Shown here in pieces: positions 1 through 60,789 of a DNA stretch of 64,000 bases. A model generated the notes under the pieces. The model had not been told where the DNA came from. It ran no database searches and saw nothing but the letters and a program-made list of their open reading frames with translations. Each line of letters starts with the position of its first letter. Position 1 is the stretch's first letter. The stretch is from NCBI GenBank assembly GCA_030704615.1, contig CM060734.1, positions 62,496,001 through 62,560,000 of the forward strand, in the 5' to 3' direction. A program made the translations under genes and the position numbers. The DNA is from Takakia lepidozioides. Its lineage: Eukaryota; Plantae; Bryophyta.

Positions 1-804
1 TGCTCTCAAGTCCACTGGCTCCTTGGCCTGTCTACCACCCAGATACACTGAAGAGAGCCAGGGTTATAAGTTATAAGCCTGCCTGCCATGGTCTTTGCCA
101 ACACCCTTTTACTAAGTTCCATTGATTTCAATTAGGATTGATAAATTTTTGACCAGGGATCAGCGATGCGGTGTTCTATCATAACCAATTCATCCACAAC
201 TCGAGGTTGGTTTCCCTTCGATTTGTTCGAATTGTCTTCATGCCATCTACTACAAGTTTTCTCGGCCCTTCCACAAAAACTTGGACCTGCACAACAGGCA
301 TCTTGAATGGAGAAAACCAAAGGGCCTGAAATCATCTCAATGGCAACCAGCAGCAAAAACTGATTGCTGCCCAAACCCAACTTCCACTTTGCTTGTTCAA
401 CCAAAGCATGAAAAAAATCTGTCAAAAATTGCATAGATTGCAGCAGGGCCTACATGTTCACACAGTAGTCGTCGTCAATGTTCGCTTTGAAGGCCTTTGC
501 TGACTTTGCTGAAATCTTTTCATGGACTGTATCGTACACATGCTCGCTCTAGTCATCCCCTGTCTTAGACCCCAAGGCGTCATTGATACCTCCCTGCAGC
601 ACTTAACCTTCTCTAATCAACCCCTGTAAACAATGCCTCTCTTCAACCTGAACTCAACTGATTGAATGCAGGGACCTCCATATAAGATGCTAAAGATCAA
701 CCAGACCTGTGTCAATAGCATTACCTATGCAATTGTGAGTGACCTAGTAGCAAATAGCTTGGTGATACAAGCATTTTTATATCCGGACAATGACAATGAC
801 AAAC

Positions 805-1830
805 CAATACGCACATGGTCCTTCCAAGTTATGCCATCCCGACCCTCCAAGACCAAGACGCCTGAAGGCAAGACCTCTCGAACCCTCAAAATAACACGTC
901 ATGCAGTCACATCCAAGGTCGTAGGAGCATAGTCACCAGGGTTGAATCTCCGAACCCCAGGACGATAGCCCCCACCACGTATGGTAGCATACCTCAAAGT
1001 ATCACGGTGTTGTGTGATGGCAAGGTTTTCGAAAGCCATGGGCATGACTTTCTTGAACAACTCTGCACGCTGCTCACATGCACGTGCCCACACGTCCGGA
1101 TCGTCAAGGTTAAGAACTACAGCAGCTTCTCTGCGAATGGATGCAGGCAAATCCGGCTCTCGGCCAAAGAGAAGAAAGTATGGTGAGAAGGAGGCAAGTG
1201 ATGCTTGCTTGCTGAACCTGTAGCCCATGGCTAACCAGGGTAACTGAAGGTCCCAATCTCCTAGGTGTCCCTTCTGCAAGCCATACTTGCGCAAACCCCT
1301 ATTTACTGTCTGAACAACTCTCTCTGCCAAGCCATCGGCCTCAGGATGATCCCGAGAAGTGGTGCAGTGGTCTATCAAGGCCTTGTCACACAAAGCCTGA
1401 AACTCCCCCAAGAACTCTCTCCCTTGGTCCGTGAATACCTCAGCTGGAGCACCGAATCGGCTAAGCACACAATCCAAGAATGCATACGCAGCTCCCTCAC
1501 TAGCCTTATCAGGCAATGGAACCAACTCAATCCACTTAGAGAAGTGCTCCACCATCACCAACACGTACTTGTTGTGACGCATGGTCAGTGACAATGGCCC
1601 TGTGAAGTCAAGATTCCATCTGTAGCCCAATCCCATGATCGGAAGAGGGTGCAATTGTGGAGTAGGGGCGTTGAATGAAGCACGCACCCTGTCACATACC
1701 ATGCACCTAGCCACAAATTGTTGCACCTCTGTGTGCATACCACGCCACCAATACTGCCCCTGTAGTAGACTATGAGTGCGTCGCACCCCAAAATGCCCCA
1801 ACTCCTCATGGGCATGCCGCACTAACCGTA
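805..1830 (-). pseudogene. Integrase of the gypsy element, C-terminus truncated
   Basis: HAHEELGHFG...CMVC zinc finger; WNLDF (D), VFTDQGREF (D), GLAERVV (E); SPYFLLFGREP motif. Confidence 0.92.
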
Positions 1831-2259
1831 CCCGCTGTATTGGGTGAGGCACAATCCTCACTCGACCATCCTCCCACACTCGGAGCAGGTGTGTCCCCTC
1901 CGACTTGAACCTCTTGGCTCGTTGTAGGATCCGATCCCTCTCCTTGGCAGTCACAGTGGCTGCAGTGTCTCCAGTGCGGAGGTAGTCCAACACAACTGAA
2001 TCCTCATGTATATCTTTGGCGCCACCTTGCTCATTGCTGGCCTCAGGGTCCTCAGACACTTGATCTACAGTCATCCATGTTGCAGGTCCAACCTGGCCTT
2101 CCGCTGCCAAGATACACAGAAATGCAGATGCATGCCATCCGGGCACCATCTCCTCGTCCGTCTCACTATGCCACCGAGCTCCAGTGTCATCCTGCTGGCT
2201 CGTGCATGGATTGCAACTCAACCCATCTGCATTGCGATTGACCAAACCCGGTCGATGCA

Positions 2260-3460
2260 CCACCTGAAAGTCATACTCTTGAAGGATGAGTGCCCACCGT
2301 GCAAGCTTCCCCGTAAGCTTGTCTGACTCCATCAACCACTTGAGTGGTTGGTGATCCGTGACAAGGGTGAAGAGATTGCCGTATAGATAGCACCTGAAGT
2401 GTGTCACGGCCCACACTGCAGCTAAGCATTCTTCCTCATATGAGCTATACTTAGACTCAGCATGCTCCAATCTGTATGCAGCTAAAAAGGACGCCCCCTG
2501 ATAGGTCGTCTTAAGATGGGCGCCGAGGTCAACCTCGCCTTGAGCTCTTGAAAAGCTTGTTCTTGCTCATCTTCCCACTACCACTCCTGGTCCACCTTGG
2601 TCAGCTTGGTTAGAGCCTTTGCAATGGCACTAAATCCCTTAACAAACCGTCTGTAATAGTTTGCTAACCCCATGAAAGCTCGAACTCGGCTCACATCCGT
2701 GGGGCGTGGAACCTGTGCAATGGACTCTACCTTAGTCTGCTGTACCCCCAATCCTCCAGGATATATCATGTGACCCAGATACTTCAATCTGGTTGTGGAA
2801 AAACTTGCACTTGCCCAGATGTAACTTCAATCCGTGCGTCCTCAAGCGCTCAAATACCCCCTGAAGGTGTCTCTCATGCTCCTCCACCGTAGCACTAAAG
2901 ATGATGATGTCATCTATGTAGCACCGAGCAAACTCTACCCCTGCTAGAATCCTGTCCATGACTCTTTGAAACTCAGCGGGAGCGTTTTTAAGCCTAAATG
3001 GTAAGAACCACCACTGGTATAGGCAATCCTTCCCGTGCTCATTGATCCCCCAGAATGTCGTCTTTTGCTTATCCGCCTCTTTGATCGGCAACTGGTGATA
3101 TCCGGATCGTAAATCCAACGTGCTAAAGACCTTGGAATGCCCAATGGCATCAAAGATCTCCTCTGGTGTCGGCATGGCATATCTATCGGACTTGGTCTGA
3201 CGATTTACAGGCCGGTAATCACCGCACATACGTCTCTCCGTCCAATTGCCATAGACATCCTTCTTGGCTGGCATCACTGTGGCTGAAGCATACTCTCCAC
3301 CAGAGAGCTCCACCAAACCTGCCTCCCAGAGATCTTGAGTCCTCATCTGAATCAAAGACCTCTCCATGTCACTGTATCTATAGGGTCTCCGAAAGATTGG
3401 CGTGTCAGTGGCCAACTCAATACGGATCTCTTGACCCTTCAGTGCTCCCAAGTCCTTCAA
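2260..3460 (-). pseudogene. Reverse transcriptase and RNase H of the gypsy element
   Basis: RRMCGDYRPVN, FSTLDLRSGYHQ, LKNAPAEFQR, YIDDII, KCKFF; frameshift near 2788 to YLGH...FMGLANYYRRFV; RNase H LHTDWS / EEECLAAVWAV / TDHQPL, with an internal deletion near 2460. Confidence 0.92.
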
Positions 3461-3919
3461 ACTGAAGACAAAGCAATTCCTGTAAGCCCTCAGGAACCGC
3501 CGTATACGTCGTCTCTCTCCTCCGGTGACAATGGGTCCAATGTCAGGCTCCCAATTGTCCTCCGTAACTGCAACCTTAAGTCCAGTGCGCTTAGAGATAG
3601 AGGATGCGTCCCGTGGTTGCTATGCTGCAACCTCTTGAGCAGTACTCCCTTCCTACTCAGTCAATGACAAGGCCTCATCCTGCCCCATCATCTCATCATT
3701 GAGAACCTCCTCATCCCGAGAAGAATCCCCAACCTCATCCATCACAGCTGCCTTGGCTGCCAACTCCCTCTGAACCTCGAGCACCTCCCACGTGTGCCAT
3801 GGATGTCTACACCCCGTGGTCCTCACCGGCTCGCCCCCACTCGCTGCCTGTACCGTCTCGGTAGGCAGAGAGACCGTCAACTGAAGTGCACTCCGCACTC
3901 TACGTTGCTCAGCCATAGC

Positions 3920-4873
3920 CAAGCTGATAATCCAGGTCAAGCAATTGAGATCCATTGCTTGCCCCAACACCTAACGACGTGATGCCTCAGAAAGAGAAAG
4001 CACCGCCGTGGTCCCAGTGGAAAATCCCATAGCCCGCTCTCGCTCGTCGGCATTAGGCTCCACTAACTGTTGCAACTGGCTATCCCACAAGAGGCCAGGT
4101 CCACCATCCCGAAAAGCATAGGATCCTGGGAAGCTGAGCAGTGTAGGTAATGCTGCTCGTGGTTGACCCACCCTGTTGACCACTGCCAAAGGCGAACGGT
4201 CATCGTGTCTCACACGTTGAGACTGCCTCCCTGTGTCCAAAATGTCATCCACGGTGAGGTGTGCTGGCCGCTGTACCCCATCAAATGCACGCTTGAGTAG
4301 TGCGGGTGGCATCAAGTTAGTCCACCAAAGCCGTGGACGATGAGCCCGTGACCCCACTGCAGCTGCATCCAGCAACACTGCTGACCCAAGCCACGACCGG
4401 ACTTGATGCACACTGGCCATCACCCTGGGCCAAGAATCATCCATCAGTGGCACATTCTCCAAGATGTATGCTGGAGATACAGCTTGATGAAGCTGCAAGT
4501 GGCGCAAAACCCGCATCATCTCCCAAAACAGACCCGTCCTCGAGTCTCGCAATCCATTGCCATGCCCAGCTGATGAATGCCCTTGGCAGGGCCAACCTGC
4601 CACTACCAGATCAATGGAGCCAACCTGCTCCAAATCCTGCGCCCCCAACAACGAAATGTCTGCTGGCAAGGCTTGTTGGTATCCACGAACTACAGACACT
4701 GGCAACAAAACAGGGTACTGTTGTACCAACTGAGCAACATGACGCAGCGAGACACGTCGTGCAGTCTCATCCCTCTCCACATACAGGTAACGTTGAACTC
4801 GTACACCTGCCTGCAGCACTGCAGCCAATCCAGTGCTGATCCCGCCAAACAAGTCCAGAAAGCATATGCCTTC
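3920..4873 (-). pseudogene. DNMT3-like C5 cytosine DNA methyltransferase domain embedded in Pol
   Basis: Motif I LDLFGGISTG, II YLYVE, IV DLVVAGWPCQGHS (catalytic PC), V GLFWE, VI YILENV, VIII SRAHRPRLWWTNL, IX ERERAMGF, X RR*VLGQAMD. One TAG at 3971-3973 inside the domain. Confidence 0.93.
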
Positions 4874-5269
4874 ATCCGGGCACTGCCACACAAGAGGTAT
4901 GGTGTCCAATGGCGACAATTGGGGTGGTCCTGGTGCAATCACCGCACTCTCCTCCTCTCCTGACGGTACGAAAGCTTCTACCCAAGCTTGTTGCACCCGT
5001 CCATCAGCAGCCTGCTGCAAATCCTTGCTCGTACCCCACAATGGAGTGTGAGCAACCATGGCAGGCAACTCCGCCATACCATGCATGTCATCCTGCTCTG
5101 CTGGAGGTGGCACATCCTCTGCATGGGCATTGCCCTCCAGCAACTCTCCAGGCCAACTAACTGCAGCTGTAAAGGCGGTTAGTGTTGGCATCTTGCCCCG
5201 TTGGGCAGCCGCAATACCCCCGATGAATGTCACAGGGAGCTGTGCACGACGACCATCCCCTGACTGTCA

Positions 5270-6148
5270 TCCAGGCCTGTAGGATGCTGACTCCTCCCAA
5301 AAGTCTAGGGTGAAGCCCATGGGATATAACACTGCCCCACCAACGAGGACATAAGAGACCGCGTCTGTCACAATGGCCTTGGCTCGCATCACTTAGCCAT
5401 CTACAGGATGATCTGCTTGTAGTCCAATGGCCAACTCACGCCGTGTCATGCCCTGAGCCTGCTCTGATCCTCCCAGAGATGTCTGTATGTGGAAAGGACA
5501 AAGCTCCATATCCGCCTCCATGAGGCCCAAACCTGCAATAGCAGCTCTGCCCAACATCAGTGGCTGAGCTCCCGAGTCCAACAAGACCCGCAATGGCCGG
5601 TACTTCTTGCCTGCCGGTCCACTCAAAGAGAAAATGCCATCTTGGTTGTCTAACAAGACAACTCCAGGTGTCACCATGGCGCGCTCAAAGGCTGGCCTAG
5701 CTGGCAGTTCCGTCAACCTGGCAGCTGCAGCTTGCCATGGCGCAGCCGTGGCAGTCTTGACCCTCAAATCTGAGGATCCCTCTGCCACTACACCTTCCAG
5801 TAACTCCGCAGAAGATGAAGTAACCTCCCCACTCTCACAGAGTGTTGCTGCTAGTCTGAACACTGCAGCTGGCCTTACCCCCGGCGTCGCAATCATGGTT
5901 GCCGAGAACAGTGGGGCTTGACACACAGAGGTGGCTGCCCCCAATAACACACCGGCTGCACTAGCCTTGGTAGCAGGTGTCAGTGCTGCACGTGTAGCTC
6001 TCCCCAATGGCATAGTAACCTCCGCCTCGGTAACAGTCGGGCGAGAACTAGGTGCCATGGATGGCGTTGACACAGTCTCCGCCAATGTGAATGACTGAGG
6101 AAGCCTCGCCTGACGGCTTGCCTCCCCACGCTGTGGATCCAATTCCAC
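5270..6148 (-). pseudogene. Retroviral-type aspartic protease region of Pol
   Basis: Active-site RVLLDSGAQ. After an in-frame TAA (5393-5395) the frame continues with YVLVGG, resembling the protease C-terminal D-x-L-L-G motif. Confidence 0.85.
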
Positions 6149-6157
6149 TTCTGCACC

Positions 6158-7817
6158 TCATGGCTCAGGAACTCGTGCTGCTCCTTGAGTCACGGCTGCA
6201 GCAGACTCCACCTGCACTAGTGGTAGTGCTGCTCCGCACATGAATCCCATGCCTCCCATATCTCCTCCCTCAGGAGCAGGAGGTGGACCATCCCGCCTGG
6301 GAGCCGGTACCGCCTGAGCTATAACCATTGCAGCGAGCCTCTGCTCTAGCTGTTGAAGCCGGTTGGCCATGCCTTGGTCAACACCCTGACCACCGCGTCC
6401 TTGGCCATGTTGAGCTTGCCCTTGGCCTGCACCTCGTGCCCGACCACCTCGTCCTCTCTGGGCTGGTCCACCTCGCCCCCGGCCACCATTGTTCCCTTGG
6501 AACTGGCCTGGGCGCAACTCAGGATGCAAGTCATAACACTGGGCATCTCCATGCCCATACTTACCACAATGCCCACACTGCAACTGTGCAGGCTGTGCTT
6601 GTGCCGGCCTTCTGCACTCTCTGGGCAATCTCTCTTGACATGGGGTCCTCCACATGTCCAACATATCACCCTGGTTGTTGTTGGCCTGCAAAAGATGCCA
6701 CGGGCCTCTGCACCTGAGGTCCCCTGTAAGCTCCATGGAACTTGGGCTGGGCAACCTTGCCCCCCTGACCACGCTGTTGGGCAGTACCTTGTGCCTGTGG
6801 GCTGGCAGCTGCGCCTCGTGCAGGCATGTCCTTGCCAAATCCAATGGTAACAACTCGCTCCTCCACCATGTTGAGCTCAATCCGCTCAGCCAGCAGAAAC
6901 ACATCTGCTAATGTGGGTTGGGCTGCTTGTAACAGGGTTGCATCTCACACCCTTCTCTTGAGCTCCTTGTCCAGAATTCCATACCAAAACTGGATTGCCT
7001 GAGCTTCAGTAACCCCTTGGGTCTCATTTATCAAGCGCCTCATACGAGTGTACGCCTCTCGCAGGCTCTCACTAGGTTTGCGCTGGAAGTCTTGCAAACT
7101 TCGCAGCTTCTCTGTCCGTACACCTTGGTAGTTCCTCCGCAACTCCTGGAAGAACTCCACCACCGGGTTGAATCTAGGCACATGTGTTGTAGTTGTGGCA
7201 GGAGGAGTAGTAGCACCTTTTGAACTAGTACCACCTGCAGAAGTACCGGCACTACTTGCTCCACTACTAGTGCTGGCAGTGGGAGATATTGGTACTGATG
7301 CAGCTACTGGTCGCGTCGTGCCTCGAGTAATAGAGACGTAGTCAGGTGACCAATACATCCTCCATTCCTCAATCTCTGCTTCATGTTCTCGCCTGAACTC
7401 GTGGTAATCGTCCATAGGCGAGCCTTCCAAATGCTGGAACAGTCCTTTCCACGCCATGAATGAGGTGAATAGCTGTGGATTGCGCATCTGCTGCAAATCA
7501 CACTAGCTGTCGAACTCCTGGATAAAGTCATCCAACTCGATTGTGCCCACAGCTCCAGAGTACCTACGAGGCCCCTTGGTAGCTCCATACATCTCCTCCA
7601 TGTCATCCCACAACAATGGCGAATGAAACTGCACACCTGTTGATGAAGCCTCCGAGTTTGTGTCTGACTCTGCACTAGTTGAGGGTGGAGGTGAAGGTGG
7701 TCTGAAACGAACACCTCGTCTGGTGAACCCACTCTCACTGCTACTGCCTGTAGCTGTACTCCCCTCAGAACCCCTGGGTAACTCCGTGATGACACTCACA
7801 ATGTGCACCTCCCCCAC
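6158..7817 (-). pseudogene. gag region with two CCHC-type zinc knuckles (stops and two frameshifts)
   Basis: ORFs 7503-7817, 6945-7496 and 6666-6902 share one frame (retrotransposon-gag-like 'FQRKPSESLREAYTRMRRL'). CWTCGGPHVKRDC is in the 6669 frame and CGHCGKYGHGDAQC in the 6904 frame. RG-rich tail follows. Confidence 0.8.
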
Positions 7818-8030
7818 GTGACACTATAAGGCTCTATTACTAATTTTAATAGTGACACGGGTAGGTACCTGTTGCAGTTTAAGGGTCATATCCCAGTGGC
7901 TCAGGGCACCTGCACCTGCATCCACCGCAAGAACTCCTATGGTTGGCTGGTCATCAACCCAGTCTCACCATAGAAGAAACACTGGTGGTCTTGCTGGTCA
8001 TCACTCCAGCCTCACCACTGACAACATACT

Positions 8031-8747
8031 CTAGGAAGCAGATCTGCAAACAATGCATCTCAAAATTTGAGGGTTTGCAACATCCACAGGGAGATTATCA
8101 TTCACAACAAAGAATCCCCAACAAACGCTATTCCGATTATGCGGTTTCCAAAAACCAGCTTGAAGGTGCATCGCTGCCAGATGTGCTGCATCCCCATCAA
8201 CTTGCAGGTTCACCTCACCACGCTCAGTCAAACTCACAAAGGTTCAGGATGTGAGATTGTTGAGCTTCCCCAATGCCCATGGCATTAACGCTACCTCCCT
8301 CCTCTCCGTACATCTATGAAAAACAGATTCAAAGCAAACATGTGTGACAAATTTAAAGCGAAACGATCTGTTCATAGTTCATATACCTGAAGCCTAACTA
8401 GACATCGTATTCATGCTCTAGATACTGATGTAGCTTGCAGCTGATTCATTGAATGGCTTCAATGGAGAGACGGCGCTAGAAACGCAGCTGCGTTGTGTGA
8501 GCAGGAACGTGTCTTATACATAACTGTAACCGCTCTAGGGGGTCAAAACGCCTTACTAATCCGGGTATACAGTGTAGTGCTAACCTTGATATAGGGTACA
8601 TATACATATACATACTCACCTCCCAACCGTCGGTTATCTATTTGCTCTATTTTATAGAAATACCCTGTATGCGGTTATGTATACCTATTAACCGGGGTGA
8701 TAACCGACTCACTAACCGGGGTAGAGTGCTATACCCAGCCAACACTC
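8031..8747 (-). mobile_element. Terminus and BED-finger-like N-terminal transposase remnant of a hAT-like DNA transposon, apparently interrupted by the gypsy element
   Basis: Terminus CCAACACTC ending 8747 resembles the termini of the hAT MITEs at 25847 and 62735. ORF 8031-8237 has CWGFF...LRCIVC, a BED-finger-like W-x-F-F...C-x2-C pattern. Confidence 0.55.
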
Positions 8748-9664
8748 GTATGTACATATAAACCCTAAAATCCTTGGAAATCACAAAGAAGCAAGGGATG
8801 AAAAGGGGCTGGTGAGGTGGTTAACGCACAGACACGAGAAAGCCTAGTAACACGAACTCTCCATCCATAGCTGCCTACAACTACTCGGGTTCAAAGCATG
8901 TATCCTTTCGTTGGCCTATGACAGTGGTGGTATTATTCGCTGTAACTGAATTGAAGCCTATAAAGTTGAATTCAAAGAAGGATAGTGCACAGAGAGGACC
9001 TTGAGCAAAGATGCCATCGCAGAAGCGGATTAATCAGAGTGCAGCACCTATGTTGCTCTATTTGATGCCACAGCTGAGGAGGTACCGTCAGCTTTGCTTG
9101 CTTGATTTACTTGCAACGTCATGAACAAGCTGCACAATTACTTCGTAGCACGGCTGTACCTTCGGAATGTGGAAGCGGTGCCATTTATGCGGAACCCCTA
9201 GAAGATTACATAGTCAAGTGGCTTTGTGAATCTGTGTGAAGTGTATGTTTTCTATGTTGATCTCTATCACATGGTGCCAGGAATGAAATGCTTTGGCTCT
9301 AATTACTGAATTCTTTTTCTGAACCCTACGTTCATGCTTGTGCCCACTCCACTCAAATTTTTGTCTAAAATTGATTCGCTTGTGATGCTTGCCAGCACTG
9401 ACTTGTTATTAGAAAGGCTTCTCCTGCCAGTCTTTACCTCATTGAGAAGGCACACCGTCTCCTACAATGGAGCGAGTGACAGAAGCATCCGGCTGGTTCA
9501 CTTTCAGGACGAAATAATCTCGGCTACCAGCAGTGTTCCAAGAGTGGCCGGCAATCACCACAACTTAGCTTTCTCTCTCAGTAGTAGAATCGTTGCCTCC
9601 GCATCAAAAATACTCCTCCAAGCTATCTAGGAATGACAATATCTCTTCAGCCTGCTGGCAATTC

Positions 9665-9978: not shown

Positions 9979-12900
9979 ATGGCACCGTCTTCCTGCGCTC
10001 TCCTGCAAGCGCATGCCCGCTGCCTACGGAAGGCCCTGTCCTCTTGCATCAGTCATGCGAGAGGCCTCGCATCATGCATTGGATTAAAGTGCTGGGATGT
10101 GGAGCTGAAAACGACATCCCCCTTGGCAATGCATATGGTGGCTGTGGCGTCTTCAGGGATGCCATTCAAATTAGGTGATAACACCAAACACTTTGAGGTT
10201 TCCTTATTTGGGGTCGCTATATTGTATGTATGCGCCGTCGGATCCAGGCTCGGAATTGTCTTTTGCGCAATTCAGCATAAACGGATGTACTATGGTGGCG
10301 TGTAGGTCAACGATGGAGCATGGAACAGCGCTGGCAGGAGTTCTTTCAAGATCAATCACAATGGTGGGACAGTAGCCTTGACAAGGTGAGCTTTCTTCAT
10401 TCTGGTATTATCGTACTGTGTGGACTCGATTGTACCGTTGTTGAGTGAAGTCAGAATCTCGCTTCGCTCTGCAAAAACTGCTTTTCCTGTCCGTATCAAG
10501 TTAGTTCTTGAAGTAAGGGAACTTGTCAAAATGTTGATAATATGGGATTTCGGGCACAAAGGTCTACTGTGGAGCATGGAGCAGAGCTGGCACGAATTTT
10601 TTAAAGATCCTTCACAATGGTGGGACAACCGCAATTGCAAGGTGTGGATTTTTTAATATACGACGCGAGGAAGTTTGCCCATCCTGCAAATCTGGGCTCT
10701 TCCTGTTAGTATCATGATTTGGTACTTTCCCTGATGTCTACAAGGTAGTTGGATGGGCCAGCTTGGTCTTAGGAGGCCAAGTTCATATCTATGGTTGCTC
10801 AGCTGCACCGTGGTGGTTCTCCTCACAGACCAATCCAAGATCACCTGACTACAGACACAAGCAGAGCACACACAAGGTCCTTTTGGGTTGATGGGGGGTT
10901 GAATCCTCCATGGTTGAAAGAAAAGCTAGCTACTTTTGTGACACAAGGCCAAGGACAATGTGGTGAGGGCACCTTCTTCTTCAACACATTTCAGCCAATT
11001 TTGCCCTCTTATCAGAGTCGTCTCTAATTTTCCATGTTGAATTCTGCCAGTTAGCTCAGTGGGTTGATCTATGGTGGTTTGGAGTGATTCTCACATGCTC
11101 ATGCACATGTGTCAGCAGGAAAGTATCCAAAAACGGCTAACACAAACGAGGAGAAGCTCTCGAATGAATATCTTCCCAACCCCAGTCAATGGTGGGACAG
11201 TCGACGCGAAAAGGTGAATGCCTGTTAGATTACAGAGAGAAGGAGACAACAATATGCAATGAAAAGCTTCGCTGGAAATGGTCATCCTCTCTCTCCCCAG
11301 CACATTTTTTGAATCCTGGGAGCAATGCAACATAGGAACTAGTGTGTGCTGAGTAGGGTTGGGGTGTTTGCTAGAACAAATCTAGGCTTTCATTGTCAGC
11401 TGCTAGATGCAAGGCGAGGATCTATACATGACCGGTGCAGAGGCTGGGATAGCTGAAGGAGCAGGGATAGAGTGTGGGTCCAGATTTACCCAAGAGGAGT
11501 GGATTTCAAGCACAAGATTACCTATGACTCCCTGTGGATTGATAGCTACAAGAAACCTGCATGGGTAGATGGTCAACTGGAAGCAGCGGCGGCGGCGGCA
11601 CAGTTGAGAAAATCAGGCACCTCAACCATGACCACGGCTTCCAAAAGAGGACCAAGAGAGGAAGTCCACAATGCCTCTTCTGGCACTTCTGGGTATGTGA
11701 GGATGCTCTGTGAGGCAGGCCAACTAAAAGAGGCTCTACACACTTTAAACCAAGGAGGCATTTCAGCAGATTCAGATACATATGTCTGTCTCTTGCATAA
11801 GTGCATCAAGATGAAAGGCCTGGAAGCTGGAAAGCAGGTGCACGCTCACATTATCCAAAGTGGATTCAAGCCAAACGTTTTTTTACACAACACCCTTGTC
11901 AACATGTATGTTAAGTGCGGGAGCATCATGGATGCTCACCAAGTGTTCAGCAGAATGCCTCAACGACGTTTGATCACGTGGAATATAATGATGGCAGGAT
12001 TTACCAAGCATGGGTGTGGTAGGAATGCTTTGGAGACCTATGAGGAAATGATTCGGGAAGGGGTGAAGCCCGACCACATCACGTTCATCTGCGTTTGCAA
12101 TGCGTGTGCGAGGCTGGCAGCCCTGGAAAAGGGCAAAGAGGTCCATGGTGACATCATCAAAGCTGGAATTGTACCAGATGTCGTTCTGAACACTGCCCTG
12201 GTGGACATGTATGCGAAGTGTGGGTGTATTGAGGCTGCAAAGGAAGTGTTCAACAAAATGGCTGAAAGAAATGTGGTGTCATGGAGCGCGATGATCACAG
12301 GATATGCACAGCAGGGGCGCGGGATGGAAGCTTTGGAGACCTATGAGCAAATGGTGTGGGAAGGGGTGAAGCCCAACCACATCACGTTTGTTTGCGTTTG
12401 CAATGCGTGTGCAAGCCTGGCAGCCCTGGAAAAGGGCAAAGAGGTCCATGGTGACATCATCAAAGCCGGGATTGCACCAGATGTCATCCTGAACAGTACC
12501 CTCATTGACATGTATGCCAAATGTGGGTGCATAGACGATGCAAAGAGTGTGTTCAACAATATGGCTGAACGGAATGTGGTGTCGTGGAGTGCGATGATTG
12601 CAGGATATGCACAGCAGGGGCACGGGATCAAGGCTTTGGAGACCTATGACCAAATGGTGCGGGAAGGGGTGAAGCCCAACCACATCACGTTTGTTTGTGT
12701 GTGCAATGCGTGTGCGAGCCTGGCATCCCTGGAAAAGGGCAGAGAGGTCCATGGTGACATCATCAAAGCTGGAATTGTACCAGATGTCATTCTGAACAGT
12801 ACCCTGGTGGACATGTATGCCAAATGTCGGTGCATTGAGGATGCAGAGGGAGTGTTCAACACCATGGCTGAGCGAAATGTGGTGTCGTGGAGTGCAATGA

Positions 12901-14105
12901 TCGCAGGATATGCACAGGAGGGGCGCGTGATGGAGGCTTTGGAGACCTATGAGCAAATGATGCGGGAAGGTGTGAAGCCTGACCACATCACGTTTGTTTT
13001 TGTTTGCAATGCATGTGCAAGCCTGGCAGCCCTGGAAAAGGGCAAAGAAGTCCATGGTGACATTGTCAAAGCTGGAATTATAACAAGTGTCATTCTGAAC
13101 AATACCCTGGTGGACATGTATGCCAAATGTGGGAGCATGGAGGATGCAGAGGAAGTGTTCAACAATATGGCTGAACGAGATGTGGTGTCCTGGAGCTCGA
13201 TGATCGCAGGATATGCACAGCAGGGCCGGGCGCTGGAGGCTTTGGAAACCTATGAGCAAATGATGCGGGAAGGTGTGAAGCCCAACCACATCACCTTTGT
13301 ATGTGTTCTCTCTGCATGCAGCCACGTTGGCCTACTGGATGAAGGAAGACGCTACTTTGATTCCCTGAGTCAAGATCATGGTGTCAGTCCGACAGTGAAG
13401 CACTTTGGCTGCATGGTAGACCTTCTTGGACGTGCAGGGCAATTGGATGAGGCAGAGGACCTCATTAATAAAATGCCAATCAAACCAGATGCTGTGGTGT
13501 GGAAGGCCTTGCTTGGTGCCTGCATATTGCATGGTAATGTGGAGATGGCTGAACGTGCAGCAACATCTATTCTCAAGTGGGATGAACAGGATGATGTGGC
13601 TTATGTGTTGCTATCAAACATCTATGCCGCAGCTGGCAGGTGGGACGATAGTGCAAAGGTGAGACAAATGATGAAGGTTAGAGGAGTTAGAAAGGAGCCA
13701 GGTCGCTGCTGCATCGAGGTTGGCAACAGGGTGCACACCTTTGTTGTAGATGACAAATTGCATCCCAAAATTAAGGAAATCCATGCTGAATTGAGGAGAT
13801 TGTCTGGGCAGATGAAGGAGGCAGGGTATGTGCGTGACACGCGCTTTGTATTGCACAATTTGGGGGAGGAGAAAAAGGAATTTTCTCTTTGCCACCACAG
13901 TGAGAAGCTGGCCATTGGTTTTGGGCTGATCAGCACGGCCCCTAGGACGCCTCTCCGTCTCATCAAGAATCTTCAGGTATGCGGTGACTGCCACACATCC
14001 ACCAAGTTCATCTCAAAGATTGTTGGCCGAGCAATTGTTGTACGGGACGCTAACCGTTTTCACCACTTTGAAGATGGGGTTTGTTCTTGTGGGGATTACT
14101 GGTGA
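9979..14105 (+). CDS. PLS-class PPR-E-DYW protein (17 PPR motifs) with N-terminal transit-like peptide and OSB-type PDF motif exons; paralogue 1
   Basis: Terminal exon 11484-14105: L-S-(P-L-S)x4-P2-L2-S2-E1-E2-DYW with HHSEKLA, CGDCH and C-terminal DYW. Predicted upstream exons: 9979-10174, 10306-10385, 10562-10641, 10803/10829-10962, 11119-11213, all bounded by GT/AG. The upstream exon usage is predicted. Confidence 0.9.
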
Positions 14106-18460: not shown

Positions 18461-21400
18461 ATGGCAGCGTCTTCACGTGTTCTCCTGCAAGCACATGCCC
18501 GCTGCCGACGCAAGGCCCTGTCCTGTCGCTTCGGTCATGCGGGAGGCCTCGGGTCATGCAACGGATTCAAGGGCTGGGCTGTGGAGCTGAAAGCGACATC
18601 CCCGTTGGCAATGCGCAAAGAACGGAGACGCTTGCAAATGGTGGCTATGGCGCCTTCGGGGATGCCATTCAAATTAGGTCATCACACGAAACACTTTGCG
18701 GTTTCCTTTTTGTGGTCGCTGTATTGTATGTATGCGACGTCGGATCCAGGCTCGGAGTTGTTTGCGCAATTCAGCATAAACGAATGTACTCTGGGCAAAG
18801 AAGCAAGAAAGCGCAGAAGATCGTTAGACAAGGCCGATAATTGGTATATCTCGCGTGTAGGTGAACGCTGGAGCATGGAACAGCGCTGGCAGGAGTTCTT
18901 TCAAGATCCTTCGCATTGGTGGGACAGTAGCCTTGACAAGGTAAACAATCTTCATGTAGGATGAGCAGGAGTGTGAGGGAGTTCCACTGAACCCTGGTAT
19001 GATAATATTGTGTGGACTGGATTGACCCCTAGTTGTCGAGATCTCGCTTTGCTCTGCAAAAACTGCTTTTACTGTAGGATGTTGTTCCTGAGCAGTATGC
19101 ACAGACCACTTGATTTCCAGACTACAGACATAGGTTTGTCTACCATCTGTGTAAGTTTGGACACGTTCATATGTTTCTCATTGTCTGGAGTCCAATGGAG
19201 CCCAATTTGACTTGAATGTTGTTGAAAGCTCCCTAGCTCTCCTCCATTGTTAATGCTGTCGGATATTGGGGCACAAGGTCTACTGTGGAGCATGGAGCAG
19301 AGCTGGCACAAGTTTTTTAAAGATCCTTCACAATGGTTGGACAACCGCAATTGCAAGGTGTGGATTTTTTTTAATGTACGGTGTGAAGAAGTTTGCCCAT
19401 CCTGCAAGTGTGGGCTCTTCCCATCAGTATCATGATTTGGTATTTTCCTTGGTGTCTACAAGGTAGTTGGGTGGGTCAGCTTGGTCTTAGGAGGCCGAGT
19501 TCATGTCTATTGCTGCTCAGCTGCACCGTGGTGGTTCTCCTCACAGACCAATCCGAAATCACCTGACTACAGACACAAGCAGCACACACAAGAGGTCCTT
19601 TTGGGTTGACTGTCGGTTGAATCCTCCATGGTTGAAAGAAAAGCTAGCTGCTTTTGTGACACACGATCAAGAACAATGTGGTGAGGGCACCTTCTTCTTC
19701 AACACATTTCAGCCAATTTTGCCCTCTTATCATAGTCGTCTCTAATATTGCATGTTCAATTCTGCAAGTTAGCTCAGTGGGTGGATCTATGGTGGTTTGG
19801 AGTGATTCTCACATGCTGCTGCACATGTGTCAGCAGGAAAGTATCCAAAAACAGCTAACACAAATGAGCAGAAGCTCTCGAATGAATATTTTTCCAACCC
19901 CAGTCAATGGTGGGACAATCGAGGCAAAAAGGTGAATGCCTGTTAGATTACAGAGAGAAGGAGACAACAAGATGCAATGCAAAGCTTTGGTGGAAATGGT
20001 CATCCGCTCTCTCCCCAGCACATTTTTTAAATCCTGGGAGCAATGCAACATAGGAACTAGTGTGTGCTGAGTTGGGTTGGATTGTTTGCTAGCACAAATC
20101 TAGGCAGTCATTGTCAGCTGCTCGTAGCAAGGCGAGGATCTATACATGACTGGTGCAGAGGCAGGGATAGCTGAAGTAGCAGGGATAGAGCTTGTGTCCA
20201 GATTCACCCAAGAGGACCCGATTTCAAGCACAAGATTACCTATGACTCCCTGTGGATTGATAGCTACAAGAAACCTGCATGGGCAGATGGTCAACTGGAA
20301 GTAGCAGCAGCAGCGGCACAGTTTATAATATCTCGCACCTCAACCATGACCACAGCTTCCAAAAGAGGACCAAGAGAGGGAGTCCACAATGCCTCTGGCA
20401 CTTCTGGGTATGTGAGGATGCTCTGTGAGGCAGGGCGACTAAAAGAGGCTCTACAGACTTTAAATCAAGGAGGCATTTCAGCAGATTCAGATACATATGT
20501 CTGTCTCTTGCATAAGTGCATCAAGATGAAAGGCCTGGAAGCTGGAAAGCAGGTGCACGCACACATTATCCAAAGTGGATTCAAACCAAATGTTTTTTTA
20601 CACAACACCATTGTCAACATGTATGTTAAGTGCGGGAGCATCGTGGATGCTCACCATGTGTTTAACAGAATGCCTCAACGATGTTTGATCACATGGAATA
20701 TAATGATAGCAGGATTTACCAAGCATGGGTGTGGTACGAAAGCCTTGGAGACCTATGAGCAAATGATGCGGGAAGGGATAAAGCCCAACCACATCACGTT
20801 TGTTTGCATTTGCAATGCGTGTGCGATCCTGGCAGCCCTGGAAAAGGGCAAAGAGGTCCATGGTGACATCATCAAAGCTGGAATTGTACCAGATGTCATT
20901 CTGAACACTGCCCTGGTGGACATGTATTGCAAATGTGGCAGCATTGGAGATGCAAAGGGAGTGTTCAACAATATGGCTGATCGAAATGTGGTGTCGTGGA
21001 ATGTGATGATCGCAGGATATGCACAGAAGGGGTGTGGGATGGAGGCCTTGGAGAGCTATGAGCAAATGATGCGGGAAGGGGTGAAGCCCGACCACATCAC
21101 GTTTGGTTGCATTTGCAATACGTGTGCAAGCCTGGGAGCTCTGGAAAAGGGCAAAGAGGTCCATGGTGACATCCTCAAAGCTGGAATTGTACCAGAGGTC
21201 ATTCTGAACAATACGCTCGTGGACATGTATGCCAAATGTGGCTGCATCAAGGATGCAAAGGGAGTGTTCGATAACATGACTGAACGAGATGTGGTGTCAT
21301 GGAGCTCGATGATTGGAGGATATGTACAGCAAGGGCACGGGATGGAGGCCTTGGAGACATATGAGCAAATGATGCGGGAAGGAGTGAAGCCCAACCACAT

Positions 21401-22820
21401 CACGTACGTTTGCGTTTGCAATGCGTGCGCAAGCCTGGCAGCCCTGGAAAAGGGCAAAGAGGTCCATGGTGACATCATCAAAGCTGGAATTGTACCAGAA
21501 GTCACTCTGAACAATACCCTTGTGGACATGTATGCCAAATGTGGATGCATGAAGGACGCAAAGGGAGTGTTCAACAATATGGTTGAACGAGATGTGGTGT
21601 CATGGAGCGCTATGATCGCAGGATATGCACAGCAGGGGTGCGGGATGGAGGCTTTGGAGACCTATGAGCAAATGATGTGGGAAGGGGTGAACCCCAACAA
21701 CATCACATTTGTTTGTGTTTGCAATGCGTGCGCGAGCCTGGCAGCTCTGGGAAAGTGCAGAGAGGTCCACTGTGACATTATCAAAGCTGGAATTGTACCA
21801 GATGTCATTCTTAGTACTGCCCTGGTGGATATGTATGCCAAATGTGGGAGCATTGAGGATGCAGAGAGAGTGTTCAACAACATGGCCAAACGAGATGTGG
21901 TGTCCTGGAATGGGATGATTGCAGGATACACCCAGCATGGTTGTCATAGGAAGGCCGTGCAACTATTTGAAGAAATGCAAATGGAAGGCTTGAAGCCGGA
22001 CAGTATCACCTTTGTATGTGTTCTCTCTGCATGCAGCCATGTTGGCCTACTGGATGAAGGAAGACGCTACTTTGATTCCCTGAGTCAAAGTCATGGTGTC
22101 ACTCCAACAGTGAAGCACTTTGGCTGCATGGTTGACCTTCTTGGACGTGCAGGGCAATTGGATGAGGCAGAGGACCTCATTAATAAAATGCCAATCAAAC
22201 CAGATGCTGTGGTGTGGAAGGCCTTGCTTGGTGCCTGCAGAATGCATGGTAATGTGGAGATGGCTGAACGTGCGGCAACATCTATTCTCAAGTGGGATGA
22301 ACAGGATGCATCAACTTATGTGTTGCTATCAAACATCTATGCCGCAGCTGGCAGGTGGGACGATAGTGCAAAGGTGAGAAAAATGATGAAGGTCAGAGGG
22401 GTTAGAAAGGAGCCAGGTCGCTGCTGCATTGAGGTTGGCAACAGGGTGCACACCTTTGTTGTAGATGACAAATTGCATCCCAAAATTAAGGAAATCCATG
22501 CTGAGTTGAGGAGATTGTCTGGGCAGATGAAGGAGGCAGGGTATGTGCCTGACACGCGCTTTGTATTGCATGATCTGGGGGAGGAGCAAAAGGAATTTTC
22601 TCTTTGCCACCACAGTGAGAAGCTGGCCATTGGTTTTGGGCTGATCAGCACGGCCCCTAGGACGCCTCTCCGTCTCATCAAGAATCTTCGGGTGTGTGGT
22701 GACTGTCACACCTCCACCAAGTTCATCTCAAAGATAGTTGGCCGAGCAATTGTTGTTCGGGACGCTAACCGCTTTCACCACTTTGAAGATGGGGTTTGTT
22801 CTTGTGGGGATTACTGGTGA
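18461..22820 (+). CDS. PLS-class PPR-E-DYW protein (17 PPR motifs) with transit-like peptide and OSB-type PDF motif exons; paralogue 2
   Basis: Terminal exon 20202-22820 begins IHPRGPDFKHKITYDSLWIDSYKKPAW, in frame with ORF 20346; HHSEKLA, KNLRVCGDCH, DYW. Predicted upstream exons: 18461-18677, 18861-18940, 19278-19357, 19521/19547-19680, 19837-19931. Confidence 0.92.
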
Positions 22821-35529: not shown

Positions 35530-37755
35530 TCCGATTTGTCAAACTCCTCCCTTTCTATTTCTCTTTGTGGCGGATGCTCTAGGATACCTTCTTGATGACA
35601 ACCTTCTCTTCAAAGGCCTCAGACTTAAAATTCCTAAATTGCAAATGTGGATCCAAGTCAAGGACTCAATGTTTGTGATGACACGTCTCTGCTCCTTGAG
35701 GCCCACCCAGATACATTGCAGGCTGCGGAACAAACCTTGCTAAAGTTCTGTAGTATCTTGGGATTCAGAGTCAATTGGTCAAAAACCAAAGCTCTCCTTG
35801 TGGGAGACTCATCTAAATCCTCTATTGGGATCGTTCCGACCTGGGGCGCCGGACGTCTGGTATGGCTCAAAGATGGAGAGACGACCACTCTGTTGGGTCA
35901 CACCTTTGGAAATAATATCACTGATGAGTAGAGGATGCAGCCTACGGTTTCCAACCTCAAACACCAACTGGTGTATTGGGGTTCCAAATTTCTATCCATC
36001 ACATTTAGAGCCCTAGTTGCCAACCAAATCCTACAGGCTGGTATATGGTATTTTGCGTCCACATGGGGCCCCAGCTCTAAGATTATTCAAGAGGTCAAAC
36101 GTTGTGTGCGTAATTTCATCTAGGGGCCCAGTCTTCTTTGCAAAACAAACGACCACGGGTATCGTGGCATCAAATATGCCAGCCTAAGAAGCAGGGTGGC
36201 TCGGTGTGTTAGACCCGGGTACTCAAATTCAGGCATTGCTTGGGAAGTGGATCCCACGGTTCCTAGGGCCTGAAGGAGGTTGGTGGAAACTGCTAATTAT
36301 CGCTAATATTTGTGCCAGCTCCCCCCTTCAATCCACCTCCTGGGCACCTTCTCTCCGCTGGATATCTCAAGGGTTCAACCATAAGATAGTTGGATCTTCT
36401 CTCTGGTCATCCATTTGGAGGGCCTGGAATAGACTCAAACCCTTCTTGATCAAACAAGCTCCCCTCTTTCCATGAGACCTTGAGACAACATCTTTTTCTC
36501 AACTCTGCAAAGCCATCCCAGGTAGAAAAACAGCAGGCCAAAAGATGGGCGGCATGGGAAACAAGGGGAATTAGCCAAGTTCAAGACCTCTGGATTAGTA
36601 CTCCAGCTCGTCTGGAGAATGATCATTCTTGTTGAAAAAGATCCCAACGTGCGGCCTTGGAGTAGGAGAATAACCCCTTGGAGAAATACTGCTCAGGGCT
36701 GGAGCTCTTCCAAAAAGCCCACCCAATGGGTGACCTTCAACGACAAAGAGTTCCATATCTTCTATGTCACTGCAACCCAAAATGCCTTGCTAAAGGGTTT
36801 CGGATTCAAGGCAGACCCCTTCTCAGGCATACTGACTCTCGCCACCCCAATTGAGACTCTGACCCCGTGCGCTAGAGCAAGACCAGCTCGAATATGCCAC
36901 TGGTCTTCAATCTCTAAAGACTACAACCCTTTGCACCCGCTGGGCATTCCAGTGGCAGTCTGGTTGGCTAAAGAGACATTTGCATGGATAGGGGGTCAGG
37001 AGCTGCAACTCCTGCAATTGGACCCAGCTGAGTGGCTGTGGAAATTTGGGAACTCTCCTCAGCCCTTCTTCACGTTCACCGCTAAAAAAGCTTACAGGGC
37101 ACTTAGCAAAGCAACCCAACTCTATGCCAAATGGAACACTAGATGGGGGCATGCTAATTTTGTGTTGGAAAAGTGGAACTGTATGTGGAAATTGATATGG
37201 GAAAAAAACAAGCCTACAAAGCTGAGCGCCTTTTTATGGCAGATTGCCAACAGGATATTGAAAGTAGGGCAGTTTTTGGCTTTCCAGGACGCATTTTTAT
37301 GCAGATGTTGCTCGATTCAAACTATAGAAAGTCTGGAATGCTATCTCCTCTGCTGTTTGGCTCCAATGGCAATCTGGCGCTTGGTTCTGGCATTCTACCA
37401 TCCCTAGAGATCGCCACCTCAAGGACCCATTGCCCTGCTCCTCAATTACAATCAGAGAGAAAAGACAAAAGCCTCAGACTGCCCAGTTTATGAAACCCTT
37501 AGATCAGCTACCCTATGGCACTTATGGAAAGCCAGATATAAATGGTCCTTGGACTCTCACAACACCTCAGTCACAACAATCCTTACTTAGGTTTTCTTTG
37601 ATTTGACCATTGCTGCCAAACACGCATGGGCCAAAATGTGTGCAGAGATCGCCAGAAGACCCCAATGTCAGTTTGCTCTCTTCGACACCTTCCAGGCGAC
37701 CTGGGGAAGAGACGGACTCATTTGCAGATGCTCTGATGCTCTGATACTCGAGCTG
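35530..37755 (+). mobile_element. Degenerate L1-clade LINE (RT C-terminal half and zf-RVT)
   Basis: LFLFVADAL, DDT, GFRVNWSKTK, RALVANQIL, KLSAFLWQIANRIL...CRCC...ES; multiple stops. Confidence 0.85.
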
Positions 37756-37756
37756 C

Positions 37757-39209
37757 CCCTTCCCCCATCATTTGCTCATAGGTCTCCAAAGCCTCCATCC
37801 CACGCCCCTGCTGGGCATATCTTGCAATCATCACACTCCACGACACCACATCTCGTTCAGCCATACTGTCAAACACTCCCTTTGCACTCACATTTGCATA
37901 CATGTCCAACAGGGCAGTGTTCAGGATGACATCTGGTACAAATCCAGCTTTGACGATGTCACCATGGACCTCTTTGCACCTTTCCAGGGCTGCCAGGCTT
38001 GCACAAGCATTGCAAATGCAAACAAATGTTATGCGGTCGGGCTTCACCCCTTCCCCCATCATTTGCTCATAGGTCTCCGAAAGCCTCCATCCCGCGCCCT
38101 TGCTGTGCATATCCTGCAATCATCGCCCTCCACGAAACCATATCTCGTTCAGCCATACTGTCGAAAACTCCCTTTTGCATCCTCGATGCACTCACACATA
38201 CATGTCCAGCAGGGCAGTGTTCAGAATGACATCGGGTACAATTCCAGATGTGACGATGTCACCATGGACCACTTTGCACCTTTCCAGAGCTGCCAGGCTT
38301 GCACACGCATTGCATATGCAAACAAACGTTATGTGGTCGGGCTTCACCCCTTCCCCCATCATTTGCTCATAGGTCTTTGAAGCCTCCATCTCGCGCCCTT
38401 GCTGTGCATATCCTGCAATCATCGCCCTCCACGACACCACATCTCATTCAGCCATACTGTCGAAAACTTCCTTCATACATGTCCACGAGGGTATTGTTCA
38501 GAATGAAATTTGTACAATTGCAGCTCTGACAATGTCGCCATGGACCTCTTCGCCCTTTCCCAGAGCTGCCAGGCTTGCACATGCACACAAATGTGATGTG
38601 GTCGGGCTTCTTTCCCCTTTACCAGAGCTCCCAGGCTTGCATACGCATTGCAAACACAAACAAATGTGATGTGGTTGGGCTTCACCCCTTCGCGCAACAT
38701 TTGCTCATAGGTCTCCAAAGCATTCCTACCACACCCATGCTTGGTAAATCCTGCCAACATTATCACGTGATCAAAGATCGTTGAGGCATTCTGTTGAACA
38801 CTTGGTGAGCATCCATGATGCTACCGCACTTAACATACATGTTGACAAGGGTGTAGAGTAGAAAAACATTTGGCGTGAATCCACTTTGGATAATGTGAGT
38901 GTGCATCTGCTTTCTAGCTTCCAGACCTTCCATCCTGATGCACTTAAGCAAGAAATAGACATGTGTATCTGAATTTGCTGAAATGCCTCCTTGCCAGAAG
39001 AGGCATTATGGACTTCTCTCTTAAACCCCTTTCAGAAGTTGTGGTCATGATTGAGGTGCCTGATTTTATCAACTGTGCCGCTGCAGCTGCTACCTTTAGT
39101 TAACCATCTGCCCATGCAGGTTTCTTATAGCTATTGATTCATAGGGAATCATAGGTAATCTGGAGCTTGAAATCTGGCCCTCTTGGATGAATCTAGACCC
39201 ACACTCTAT
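37757..39209 (-). pseudogene. Third, inverted PDF-PPR paralogue: disabled 5' part of the terminal exon
   Basis: From 39192 reads IHPRGPDFKLQITYDSL*INSYKKPAWADG*, then degenerate L/S/P repeats with deletions. Retains the intron acceptor ATAGAGTGTGGGTC-AG seen at 11468-11483. Confidence 0.9.
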
Positions 39210-47900: not shown

Positions 47901-49123
47901 GGCCATAAAGACAGCAATTTACAATGGATCTCTGAAAGAAATGATGGACAATGATTGTATGGCGACACAAGATCAGCAAGGCAGTCTTGTCTCAGGATGC
48001 AAATGTTCATTTTGTAGATCGGGATCAAACCTGGTGCACTGGATACAGCGGGTCATGATCGTCTTCACTAGAGGCCCTAGATTCTTATCCAAGACAGTCC
48101 GTTTTGTTTCAGTGAATCTGCTGCGGTCGGATCCAAAAACCATTGATTGATCCTGTAGGTCGCATTCTCCCCCCTGATCGCATATGGGACAGTCCAAGGG
48201 ATGATTAATCAACAAAAACTCCATCACGCCCTCCCTTGCCTTTTTACACAACGGAGTATCTGTCTTGATTTTCATACCTGCCAAGCAGACCCAGCTCCAC
48301 GTCAACATATTTCCCTTTGCTTCACAGGCGGATACTACCGAGCAATAACCTTGAAGGGACAACGGGAAAGTCAACATCTGGCCCCAAAGAAAGGAAGCAA
48401 TTTAGAGGTCTCCATTGAAAGGAAGGGAGAACAACAAAGAGAGAGGGCTGGCAAACAGCAGGGATGTGAGTAAACCTCCAGAGAGAAGATAATTAACAGA
48501 TATTAGCTGTACAGACCTGGAAGGGCAGGCATCGCACAAGATGCTACAGGCTTGGGAGTCTTCTCAACTTCAACAAGGCACATGCGACAATTCCCCGCAA
48601 TGGAGAGGCGGCTATGATAGCAGAACCTGGGGATGATCACTCCTCCTAATTCACAAGCCTGAAGCACTGTCATGCCTTTGGGGACCTGCACTGCCTGTCC
48701 ATCCACACTCACTTCTATCATCTCCTCTGCCTTCGCCACTTTCGCCCCTACTGCCGGCAGAGCCGCACTGTGCGCGTACCGCAAACCTCCCCGACGCAGA
48801 GCAGCACCCACAACCATGCCACTTACATCGCGTGCTACTCCTCGCACCCTGCCTTCGACTGCACCTCGTAATCCTGAAATTGAGGTGCTCCTGTCATGGC
48901 ATCCATCATCTGGCCCCAACCCACTTCTTCCTGCATGGTGAATATGACGGAGTGCTTGCAAGCTTGACGGTGAGGAAGGCCTACAATCACATAATGCCAA
49001 TCTTTGACGAAACTGATGTAATGAGCCCTTCAAACAGTCCAAGGAATCAACGACATGCTTAGCTTCAGCATGAGCCTGCAGGAATGTGATGGTCTTGCGA
49101 CCCCTCCAACCCATCTTCCACAT
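44908..49123 (-). CDS. NDUFS1: Mitochondrial complex I 75-kDa Fe-S subunit; exons 49123-48517, 48277-48031, 47614-47320, 46745-46371, 45816-44908 (start codon uncertain)
   Basis: [104 protein letters not shown]; phase-compatible GT-AG introns. Confidence 0.96.
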
Positions 49124-60700: not shown

Positions 60701-60789
60701 CTGGCCTTCGCCTCTCGAATTTGAGAATGACATTAATTGGAAACACAAGAAGAACAGAATTCGAAAATTAAAGCCCATCTCAATTTTGA

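Follow-up and report, generated by a model that had tools for sequence, protein, structure and literature searches.

A 64-kb window of the genome of the moss Takakia lepidozioides (GenBank assembly GCA_030704615.1, contig CM060734.1, positions 62,496,001 to 62,560,000; "the window" is this whole stretch, and positions are counted from its first letter) holds a decayed copy of a Ty3/Gypsy retrotransposon that carries, within its coding region, a DNMT3-like cytosine methyltransferase. The methyltransferase is an inherited domain, present throughout the family to which the copy belongs. Between it and the reverse transcriptase (RT) stands an in-frame stop codon, and this stop belongs to the design of the family, not to the decay of the copy. 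Judged from sequence, the layout of the element is likely to be Gag, protease (PR), and methyltransferase in one frame, then a leaky UAG, then RT, RNase H (RH), integrase (INT), and a PHD finger. Because the conserved TAG divides the frame in this way, the enzyme would be made at the level of Gag, not at the level of Pol.

Hosts, of course, use DNA methyltransferases to silence transposons. Why a transposon should keep the silencing enzyme of its host has been a standing question since 2018, with the sole Gypsy example being algal and its enzyme silent in yeast. A conserved leaky stop makes a prediction here: enzyme at capsid dosage, not at Pol dosage. Further, because the family is abundant in host reads and is present in numerous copies in Marchantia polymorpha, a species for which methylation mutants are available, the idea that such elements methylate themselves becomes testable. 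If the view presented here is true, the Marchantia copies allow a direct test of transposon self-methylation in a model land plant.

A DNMT3-like domain inherited in a bryophyte family

The methyltransferase lies at 3893-4885 on the minus strand, the strand analyzed for the element, and contains motifs I through X. An initial annotation, made from the letters of the window alone, had placed all of the C5 methyltransferase motifs in canonical order between protease and RT, and had suggested PF00145 as a check. The order is as described: motif I (4861-4835), II (4780-4769), IV (GWPCQ, 4597-4583), VI (ENV, 4459-4451), VIII (4345-4313), IX (4045-4022), and X (3970-3950). The match to PF00145 has an E value of 4.7e-12, and scores 46.4 bits, where 22 is the cut-off. 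The catalytic cysteine, the glutamate of ENV, and both arginines of motif VIII are unchanged in 24 of 24 aligned rows. The domain is intronless and non-rearranged, lies within Gypsy coding sequence, and retains its key residues, the features that mark KnitGypsy-Dnmt3, the element of the alga Klebsormidium nitens.

The likeness to DNMT3, also part of that annotation, was recovered in two ways. When the single sequence was compared to the PDB, DNMT3A/B were best (E 1e-8). A profile built from the 24 aligned rows ranked DNMT3A/B first (3.5e-26), ahead of a DRM-type structure (4onj, 3.5e-17) and DRM2 (6.7e-14), with M.HhaI (2.8e-10) and DNMT2 (6e-7) weaker. Likewise, the predicted structure of the domain (pLDDT 93.4) found DNMT3A as its best fold match (E 1.6e-19, TM 0.72/0.83), and every fold match listed was a DNMT3. 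By these comparisons, DRM, DNMT2, and bacterial methyltransferases are all more distant from the domain than DNMT3A/B is; this relationship is a ranking by similarity, as the DNMT tree discussed below is unrooted and includes neither host DNMT3/DRM sequences nor the Klebsormidium DNMT. A viral collection gave 30 matches to phage-type methyltransferases, at 28-47% identity over part of the domain; these were not used.

Evidence on the family comes from sequencing reads (runs X1, X5, X6, and X7 among them) and from metagenome loci, not from counted copies in the host genome. In run X1, 75,502 contigs fell on 600-8800 of the window. Their summed depth was 0.6-1.2 million over the DNMT, 0.9-1.0 million over the RT, and 1.0-1.4 million over the integrase, sums that are not to be read as copy number. 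Sister elements lacking the domain, with this copy a one-off, had been named as an outcome that would refute the first interpretation; in fact, reads cover the DNMT about as deeply as they do the RT, and the relatives carry the DNMT.

These relatives also bear out the suggestion that the lineage persists in bryophytes. A search for longer proteins returned 88 of them at E<=1e-10. Foremost are those of Marchantia polymorpha, at many loci, of Calypogeia fissa, and of Sphagnum, with identities mostly of 58-73%; Closterium and unnamed contigs come next. At the same threshold, 805 clusters (50% identity) were found. Trees of the RT (72 rows) and of the DNMT (66 rows) give the same main groups, and the window copy joins loci from Marchantia, Calypogeia, and a peat-moss-like source (95 and 99). 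In the RT tree, all RTs from DNMT-bearing elements, together with the Klebsormidium RT (KFL_013780010, P0281), form one clade (99); Klebsormidium is placed by its RT alone. The histories of the two domains thus broadly agree.

The DNMT is, moreover, under purifying selection in the family. Its dN/dS is 0.09-0.13 in five pairs with unsaturated synonymous sites (0.10-0.13 among loci L013, L014, L022, and L067; 0.09 for L047 against L041). Synonymous sites are saturated in five other pairs, and between the window and L012 nonsynonymous differences per site (pN) are 0.195 against a saturated synonymous value (pS) of 0.76.

The stop between methyltransferase and reverse transcriptase

A single frame, 6907-2732 on the minus strand, contains the second zinc knuckle, the protease, the methyltransferase motifs, and the RT. 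It is interrupted by exactly six internal stops, the same six point stops (6158, 5393, 5267, 3971, 3653, and 3620) that had been listed initially. The accompanying claim that this frame is "broken only by point stops" survives in part. The frame is indeed shared, but the stop at 3620-3622 is found across the family, and insertions or deletions in gag and a frameshift in the RT must be added to the damage.

The stop at 3620-3622 closes the Gag-PR-DNMT frame in a read-through context, TAG CAA CCA (3614-3622, minus strand). Four runs were aligned to 3540-3760, and in all four no variant reached 5% anywhere in 3613-3624, where X1 alone has a depth of nearly one million. Just 33 bases upstream, the stop at 3653-3655 has another reading in 99.5% of the X1 depth, and the stop at 5393-5395 behaves likewise. 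At the places of the remaining three, the proteins of relatives are open.

The junction was then compared among 80 metagenome loci plus the window. From these 81 sequences, 21 without a DNMT end or an RT start were dropped; from the remaining 60, eight duplicates were dropped, leaving 52 distinct loci. In the first of two lineages, to which the window copy belongs, an in-frame stop stands at the junction in 26 of 29 distinct loci (19 TAG, 7 TAA), and CAR-YY comes next in 25. The other three include one with a sense codon, one without the junction, and one too decayed to place. As background, 23,948 codons contained 230 stops, only six of which were followed by CARYY.

The most direct view comes from the intact locus L014. 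Here, 1369 open codons are followed by TAG CAG TTA and then by 1047 open codons reaching to the PHD finger, and the junction stop is the only stop. The exact form, UAG-CAR-YYA, is present in the window, L013, L014, L022, and L067 (TAG CAA TCA in the last two). The codon that follows CAR varies in the residue that it encodes (Pro, Leu, or Ser), yet holds its two pyrimidines. Now, UAG-CAR-YYA is the read-through consensus of tobamoviruses such as tobacco mosaic virus (PMC3542737). The features by which Type I read-through is recognized in sequence, an in-frame UAG, a conserved CAR-YYA, and an open frame beyond, are all found at the junction.

The proteins of relatives divide at the same place. 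Many are Gag-PR-DNMT proteins of 1250-1450 residues whose ends lie just past the DNMT; the top-ranking relatives of the RT are RT-RH-INT-PHD proteins of 1033-1083 residues that start at the junction. Three Marchantia proteins, as given by gene models, and one from Calypogeia end 124-126 residues past motif IX, which is the site of the peat-moss-like stop. Other signals were sought at the junction. No conserved in-frame ATG follows the stop (the first is at codon 85, 3, 3, 117, 5, 14, and 117), the lineages compared have no U-rich tract or splice donor in common, and RNA folding 3' of the stop, scored in four sequences against mononucleotide shuffles, gave divergent z values (0.11, -0.61, -2.3, and -3.2), with no common structure evident.

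Thus, decay does not account for the stop at 3620-3622, because it is invariant in four runs, is present in 26 of 29 loci of the first lineage, and is the sole stop of L014.

A caution for annotation may be added. Several gene models from Marchantia and Sphagnum (P0003, P0006, P0008, P0009, P0013, and P0051), labeled "hypothetical" or "DNA methyltransferase," are copies of this element. Four of these (P0008, P0009, P0013, and P0051) fuse the DNMT to the RT without a linker, as if an intron had been called over the stop.

The window copy, element ends, and neighboring genes

The copy in the window extends from about 808 to about 8036 on the minus strand. Loose ends of the read contigs fall at 808 (X5, X6, and X7) and at 8036 (X1 and X5), and depth drops outside. 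The copy is cut at about 808, ahead of the PHD finger and the 3' repeats, and at about 8036 parts from its sisters. Neither a terminal repeat nor an end junction of the element was found in the window, and no second repeat of it elsewhere in the window.

Within these limits, all on the minus strand, the gag capsid region (6945-7823) resembles Retrotrans_gag, with a match to PF03732 (E 8.5e-5, 23.1 bits) that is slightly below the cut-off of 24.1. It has an internal stop at 7503-7505 and its first conserved methionine at 7601, and is 45-59% identical to its peat-moss-like relatives. Two CCHC zinc knuckles, read by motif, lie in different frames at 6625-6663 and 6536-6577. One-base changes near 6668 and near 6614, at each of which sister contigs have one additional base, put the upstream part of gag into two other frames; in the Marchantia protein P0003, gag through DNMT is a single open reading frame. 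The aspartic protease (5393-5701) was recognized by its D-S-G at 5567-5584 (LLDSGA, 5584-5567); Asp_protease_2 is weak in this copy (E 0.038), and matches at E 2e-4 in L014.

In frame after the stop comes the RT (2771-3562; PF00078, E 2.6e-26; YIDD at 2920-2909), with a frameshift near 2783. RNase H (2200-2566; PF17917, E 9.8e-23) is without about 80 bases near 2458, where record 26 of run X7 is longer by about 80 letters. The integrase (899-1999; PF17921, E 6.4e-16; PF00665, E 9e-14) has its HHCC at 1694-1810 and its D-D-E core at about 1313-1615. These Pfam matches follow the order GAG-PROT-RT-RH-INT by which Ty3/Gypsy elements are defined (PMC6317226). A DIRS or Ngaro element would have a tyrosine recombinase; here, the family has an rve integrase and 4-bp target duplications. 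The window DNMT itself is broken by the stop at 3971-3973, just ahead of motif X. With this stop, with gag shifted twice and the RT once, and with both ends lost, the copy is dead and yields none of the products of the element.

The ends must therefore be seen in relatives. These have TG...CA ends and a polypurine tract (PPT), but split A..B-A-B repeats in place of two long terminal repeats (LTRs). In L031, L064, L047, and L056, the order is A-coding-PPT-B-A-B, starting with TGTCATG and ending with CACGACA; the layout is partial in L046 and L061. Four of the four relatives in which both ends were found by motif are flanked by 4-bp target duplications. At the internal B-A boundary, 11 loci (10 distinct), drawn from both lineages and including L014 and L022, have the near-palindromic junction CAYGACA-NN-TRTCAYG. 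It was located by motif in the 3' B-A-B block of L031 (10344-10359), L064 (14658-14673), L047 (14473-14488), L056 (14499-14514), L014 (8653-8668), and L022 (8232-8247), and is retained across lineages whose proteins are only about 40% alike. The junction probably serves as template for two-base overhangs at the ends of the cDNA, or else as a circle-junction substrate of the integrase. Split repeats together with a DDE integrase suggest an unusual route of integration.

Neighboring genes identify the host as a land plant, as had been supposed. The nuclear gene NDUFS1, for the 75-kDa subunit of complex I (44908-49186, minus strand), has as its best named match the moss Ceratodon (72%). In a tree of 24 rows, which includes no named hornwort or alga, this gene groups with the moss rows (97/95), sister to liverworts. 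Two intact-looking PPR-E-DYW RNA-editing genes (11457-14105 and 20175-22820, plus strand) stand in tandem through a duplication of roughly 8.7 kb; another PPR-DYW copy, the third, is broken and inverted and lies at about 37750-39210 (minus strand). Fragments that resemble, by eye, the C-terminal regions of LINE RTs lie at 36526-37407 and 60048-60605 (plus) and at 60780-61364 (minus).

A proposed mechanism, its rivals, and known systems

The mechanism proposed here begins with one RNA, whose translation would deliver mostly Gag-PR-DNMT and, by read-through of the stop, a few percent of the full polyprotein. Read-through at this level is quite likely, judging from the UAG-CAR-YYA of tobamoviruses and from the Gag:Pol ratio of retroelements, which is about 20:1 (PMC2194720). 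With the DNMT on the capsid side of the stop, each particle would hold many copies of the enzyme, which the protease would liberate within the particle. There, the enzyme would methylate newly made cDNA. Its substrate would be CG, a choice toward which we lean only slightly, by analogy with the DNMT3s of Symbiodinium retrotransposons, for which methylation of new cDNA has been proposed and which methylate CG de novo in yeast (PMC5890265). The new copy would then reach its insertion site already methylated, where the PHD finger of the integrase would read the chromatin. As a whole, the view that the window holds a decayed Ty3/Gypsy copy whose family makes Gag-PR-DNMT as its first frame, makes RT-RH-INT-PHD by read-through, and packages the methyltransferase at capsid level to methylate its own cDNA is one that we hold with moderate confidence. 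A broader history is more tentative, and somewhat less likely than not. Here, a lineage older than the split between mosses and liverworts would have shifted its recoding site past a captured DNMT3, so that every capsid subunit imports a methyltransferase and copies integrate pre-methylated, using the CA-NN-TG junction with a DDE integrase.

Several observations weigh against this mechanism. In 21 peat-moss-like loci with CAR-YY, the motif ends in C or T, not in A. Of the 26 stop-bearing loci, 22 belong to one close peat-moss-like family, and the stop therefore represents only about five separate lineages, the window included. The ends of the Marchantia reading frames come from gene models, not from DNA, and both trees were quick ones (LG+G4) that returned long-branch warnings. 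One pair of peat-moss-like loci, L012 and L016, has a DNMT dN/dS of 0.70, which is expected of decayed copies and is no evidence of selection. CpG has an observed/expected ratio of 0.50 inside the element, compared with 0.49 elsewhere in the window, no loss beyond background and a measure that carries little information here. When assayed in yeast, the Gypsy DNMT of Klebsormidium produced no methylation, a result that its authors regarded as inconclusive (PMC5890265).

Relatives, too, show that the enzyme need not sit where it does here. In a second lineage (22 distinct loci within L041-L080, the DNMT at 34-43% identity, with Calypogeia RTs in its clade), the DNMT continues into the RT without a shared stop; no shared gag/pol recoding site was found among 15 decayed loci. 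Further, in at least 108 fetched proteins (P0042, P0045, and P0048, for example), the DNMT is on the RNase H/integrase side, and a PHD finger is present. Those sampled form a nested clade, which includes a protein labeled Chrzof1, presumably from the green alga Chromochloris, and the group with the DNMT between RNase H and integrase is likely green-algal. No description of this domain order was found in the literature. Because these two groups exist, capsid-level dosage is not required by all DNMT-bearing relatives, and the position and dosage of the enzyme must have changed during the history of the lineage. Each group also offers, of course, a natural contrast to the family with the stop. 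Separately, two RT relatives at about 40% identity (P0290 and P0293) have a Dam-type adenine methyltransferase (PF05869), one of them with a PHD finger as well; the RT tree places both outside the DNMT clade.

Other ways of using the same two frames deserve consideration. A splice that skips the stop (compare Ogre) might give access to the frame for RT-RH-INT-PHD, as might an internal promoter or some other bypass (compare Tca2), with the DNMT remaining on the Gag side. Ogre has an intron at just this boundary, where GAG-PROT meets RT-RH-INT (PMC6317226), and the stop context of Tca2 gave no read-through in yeast and contains a minor promoter (PMC2194720). The stop here ends in AG, a possible splice acceptor, and the peat-moss-like family has a T-run ahead of the stop and an ATG three codons past it. 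However, the spacer between the Ogre reading frames is about 274 bases, whereas here it is one codon, with both sides open and in frame in L014. The T content upstream of the stop (0.22-0.33) is similar to that of the region (0.25-0.30), no donor is shared, and the ATG is unconserved. What is conserved at the junction is the downstream CAR-YY, which is to say, a read-through signal. These points make a bypass unlikely. It is doubtful, as well, that read-through delivers a Gag-side DNMT that acts mostly outside of the particle, on integrated copies, on host chromatin (to limit itself or to silence competitors), or on RNA. De Mendoza et al. name these options, and the activity of the Gypsy enzyme could not be demonstrated there (PMC5890265); the CpG content and the relatives with a DNMT beside the integrase fit them too. 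Conversely, the DNMT consists of a catalytic core by itself, joined to Gag without a chromatin reader, the PHD being on the integrase, and its fold and sequence are DNMT3-like, not DNMT2-like.

The initial annotation had regarded the methyltransferase as an integral domain of Pol rather than a nested insertion. Integral and inherited it is, but in this lineage it lies on the Gag side of the stop, and the picture of a Pol in one frame holds for the second, more distant lineage. A continuous Pol polyprotein, with all six stops as decay, would accommodate the presence of all domains in one frame, applies to that second lineage and to proteins like P0280, and resembles KnitGypsy, described as one Pol reading frame in its authors' reply to reviewers (PMC5890265). 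For the family of the window it is very improbable, as four runs show the 3620 stop without variation and it is common to lineages whose synonymous sites are saturated. That the methyltransferase was captured just once from the host, came in as a nested insertion, or lies on a contaminating algal contig can hardly be entertained; nothing spoke for any of the three, and all were rejected: the depth is even over the DNMT, relatives occur in three named bryophyte genera, the trees are congruent, and the same window holds PPR-DYW genes of land-plant type and a moss-type NDUFS1.

How, then, does the family compare with known systems? Its closest counterpart is KnitGypsy-Dnmt3 (PMC5890265), which likewise has Ty3/Gypsy domains, an intronless DNMT3-like domain within its coding sequence, purifying selection on it, and an A-coding-B-A-B repeat layout like that of DIRS, found here in relatives of both lineages. 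It differs in its host and in its abundance, with about 30 genes in KnitGypsy and a family abundant in reads in a land plant here. It differs also in its single Pol reading frame, where the moss family has a conserved, leaky-type stop before the RT; the Klebsormidium RT is 44% identical to that of the window. The PHD finger, the 4-bp duplications, and the CA-NN-TG junction go without mention in the available part of that paper. Because the DNMT and RT are in the same frame but split by a conserved stop, the moss family is a variant, not a plain member of KnitGypsy-Dnmt3. SymbioDIRS-Dnmt3 also joins a DNMT3-like domain to a retrotransposon with split direct repeats, but has its own tyrosine recombinase and a DIRS RT (PMC5890265), in contrast to the DDE integrase and Ty3 RT here.

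For the stop, tobamovirus Type I read-through offers the nearest likeness, with a single in-frame stop followed by CAR-YYA setting the ratio of upstream to downstream product (PMC3542737), as is predicted here. Murine leukemia virus (MuLV), SIRE1, and Tca2 have their stop at the gag-pol or the pol-env boundary (PMC2194720); here, it comes after the protease and a cargo enzyme. Ogre, of the Tat clade, shares the split that separates GAG-PROT from RT-RH-INT, but splices out its spacer, and the available text on it mentions neither a methyltransferase nor a PHD finger (PMC6317226). DAM-LTR and EpiLTR are LTR elements with methyltransferases, but these are adenine methyltransferases or DNMT4-related enzymes with chromodomains, and the streptophyte Gypsy-DNMT3 elements are kept separate from them (bioRxiv 10.64898/2026.05.21.726589). 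Chlamydomonas Gypsy-7a is an LTR element with a PHD finger (PMC9940879).

No report of a DNMT-bearing retrotransposon in a land plant, or of its leaky stop, was found in the literature, where unexamined supplements might include bryophyte sequences; two later papers speak of "streptophytes," citing the 2018 study. The kind of element is known from Klebsormidium. What seems to be new is a land-plant family with its DNMT on the Gag side and a conserved stop behind it.

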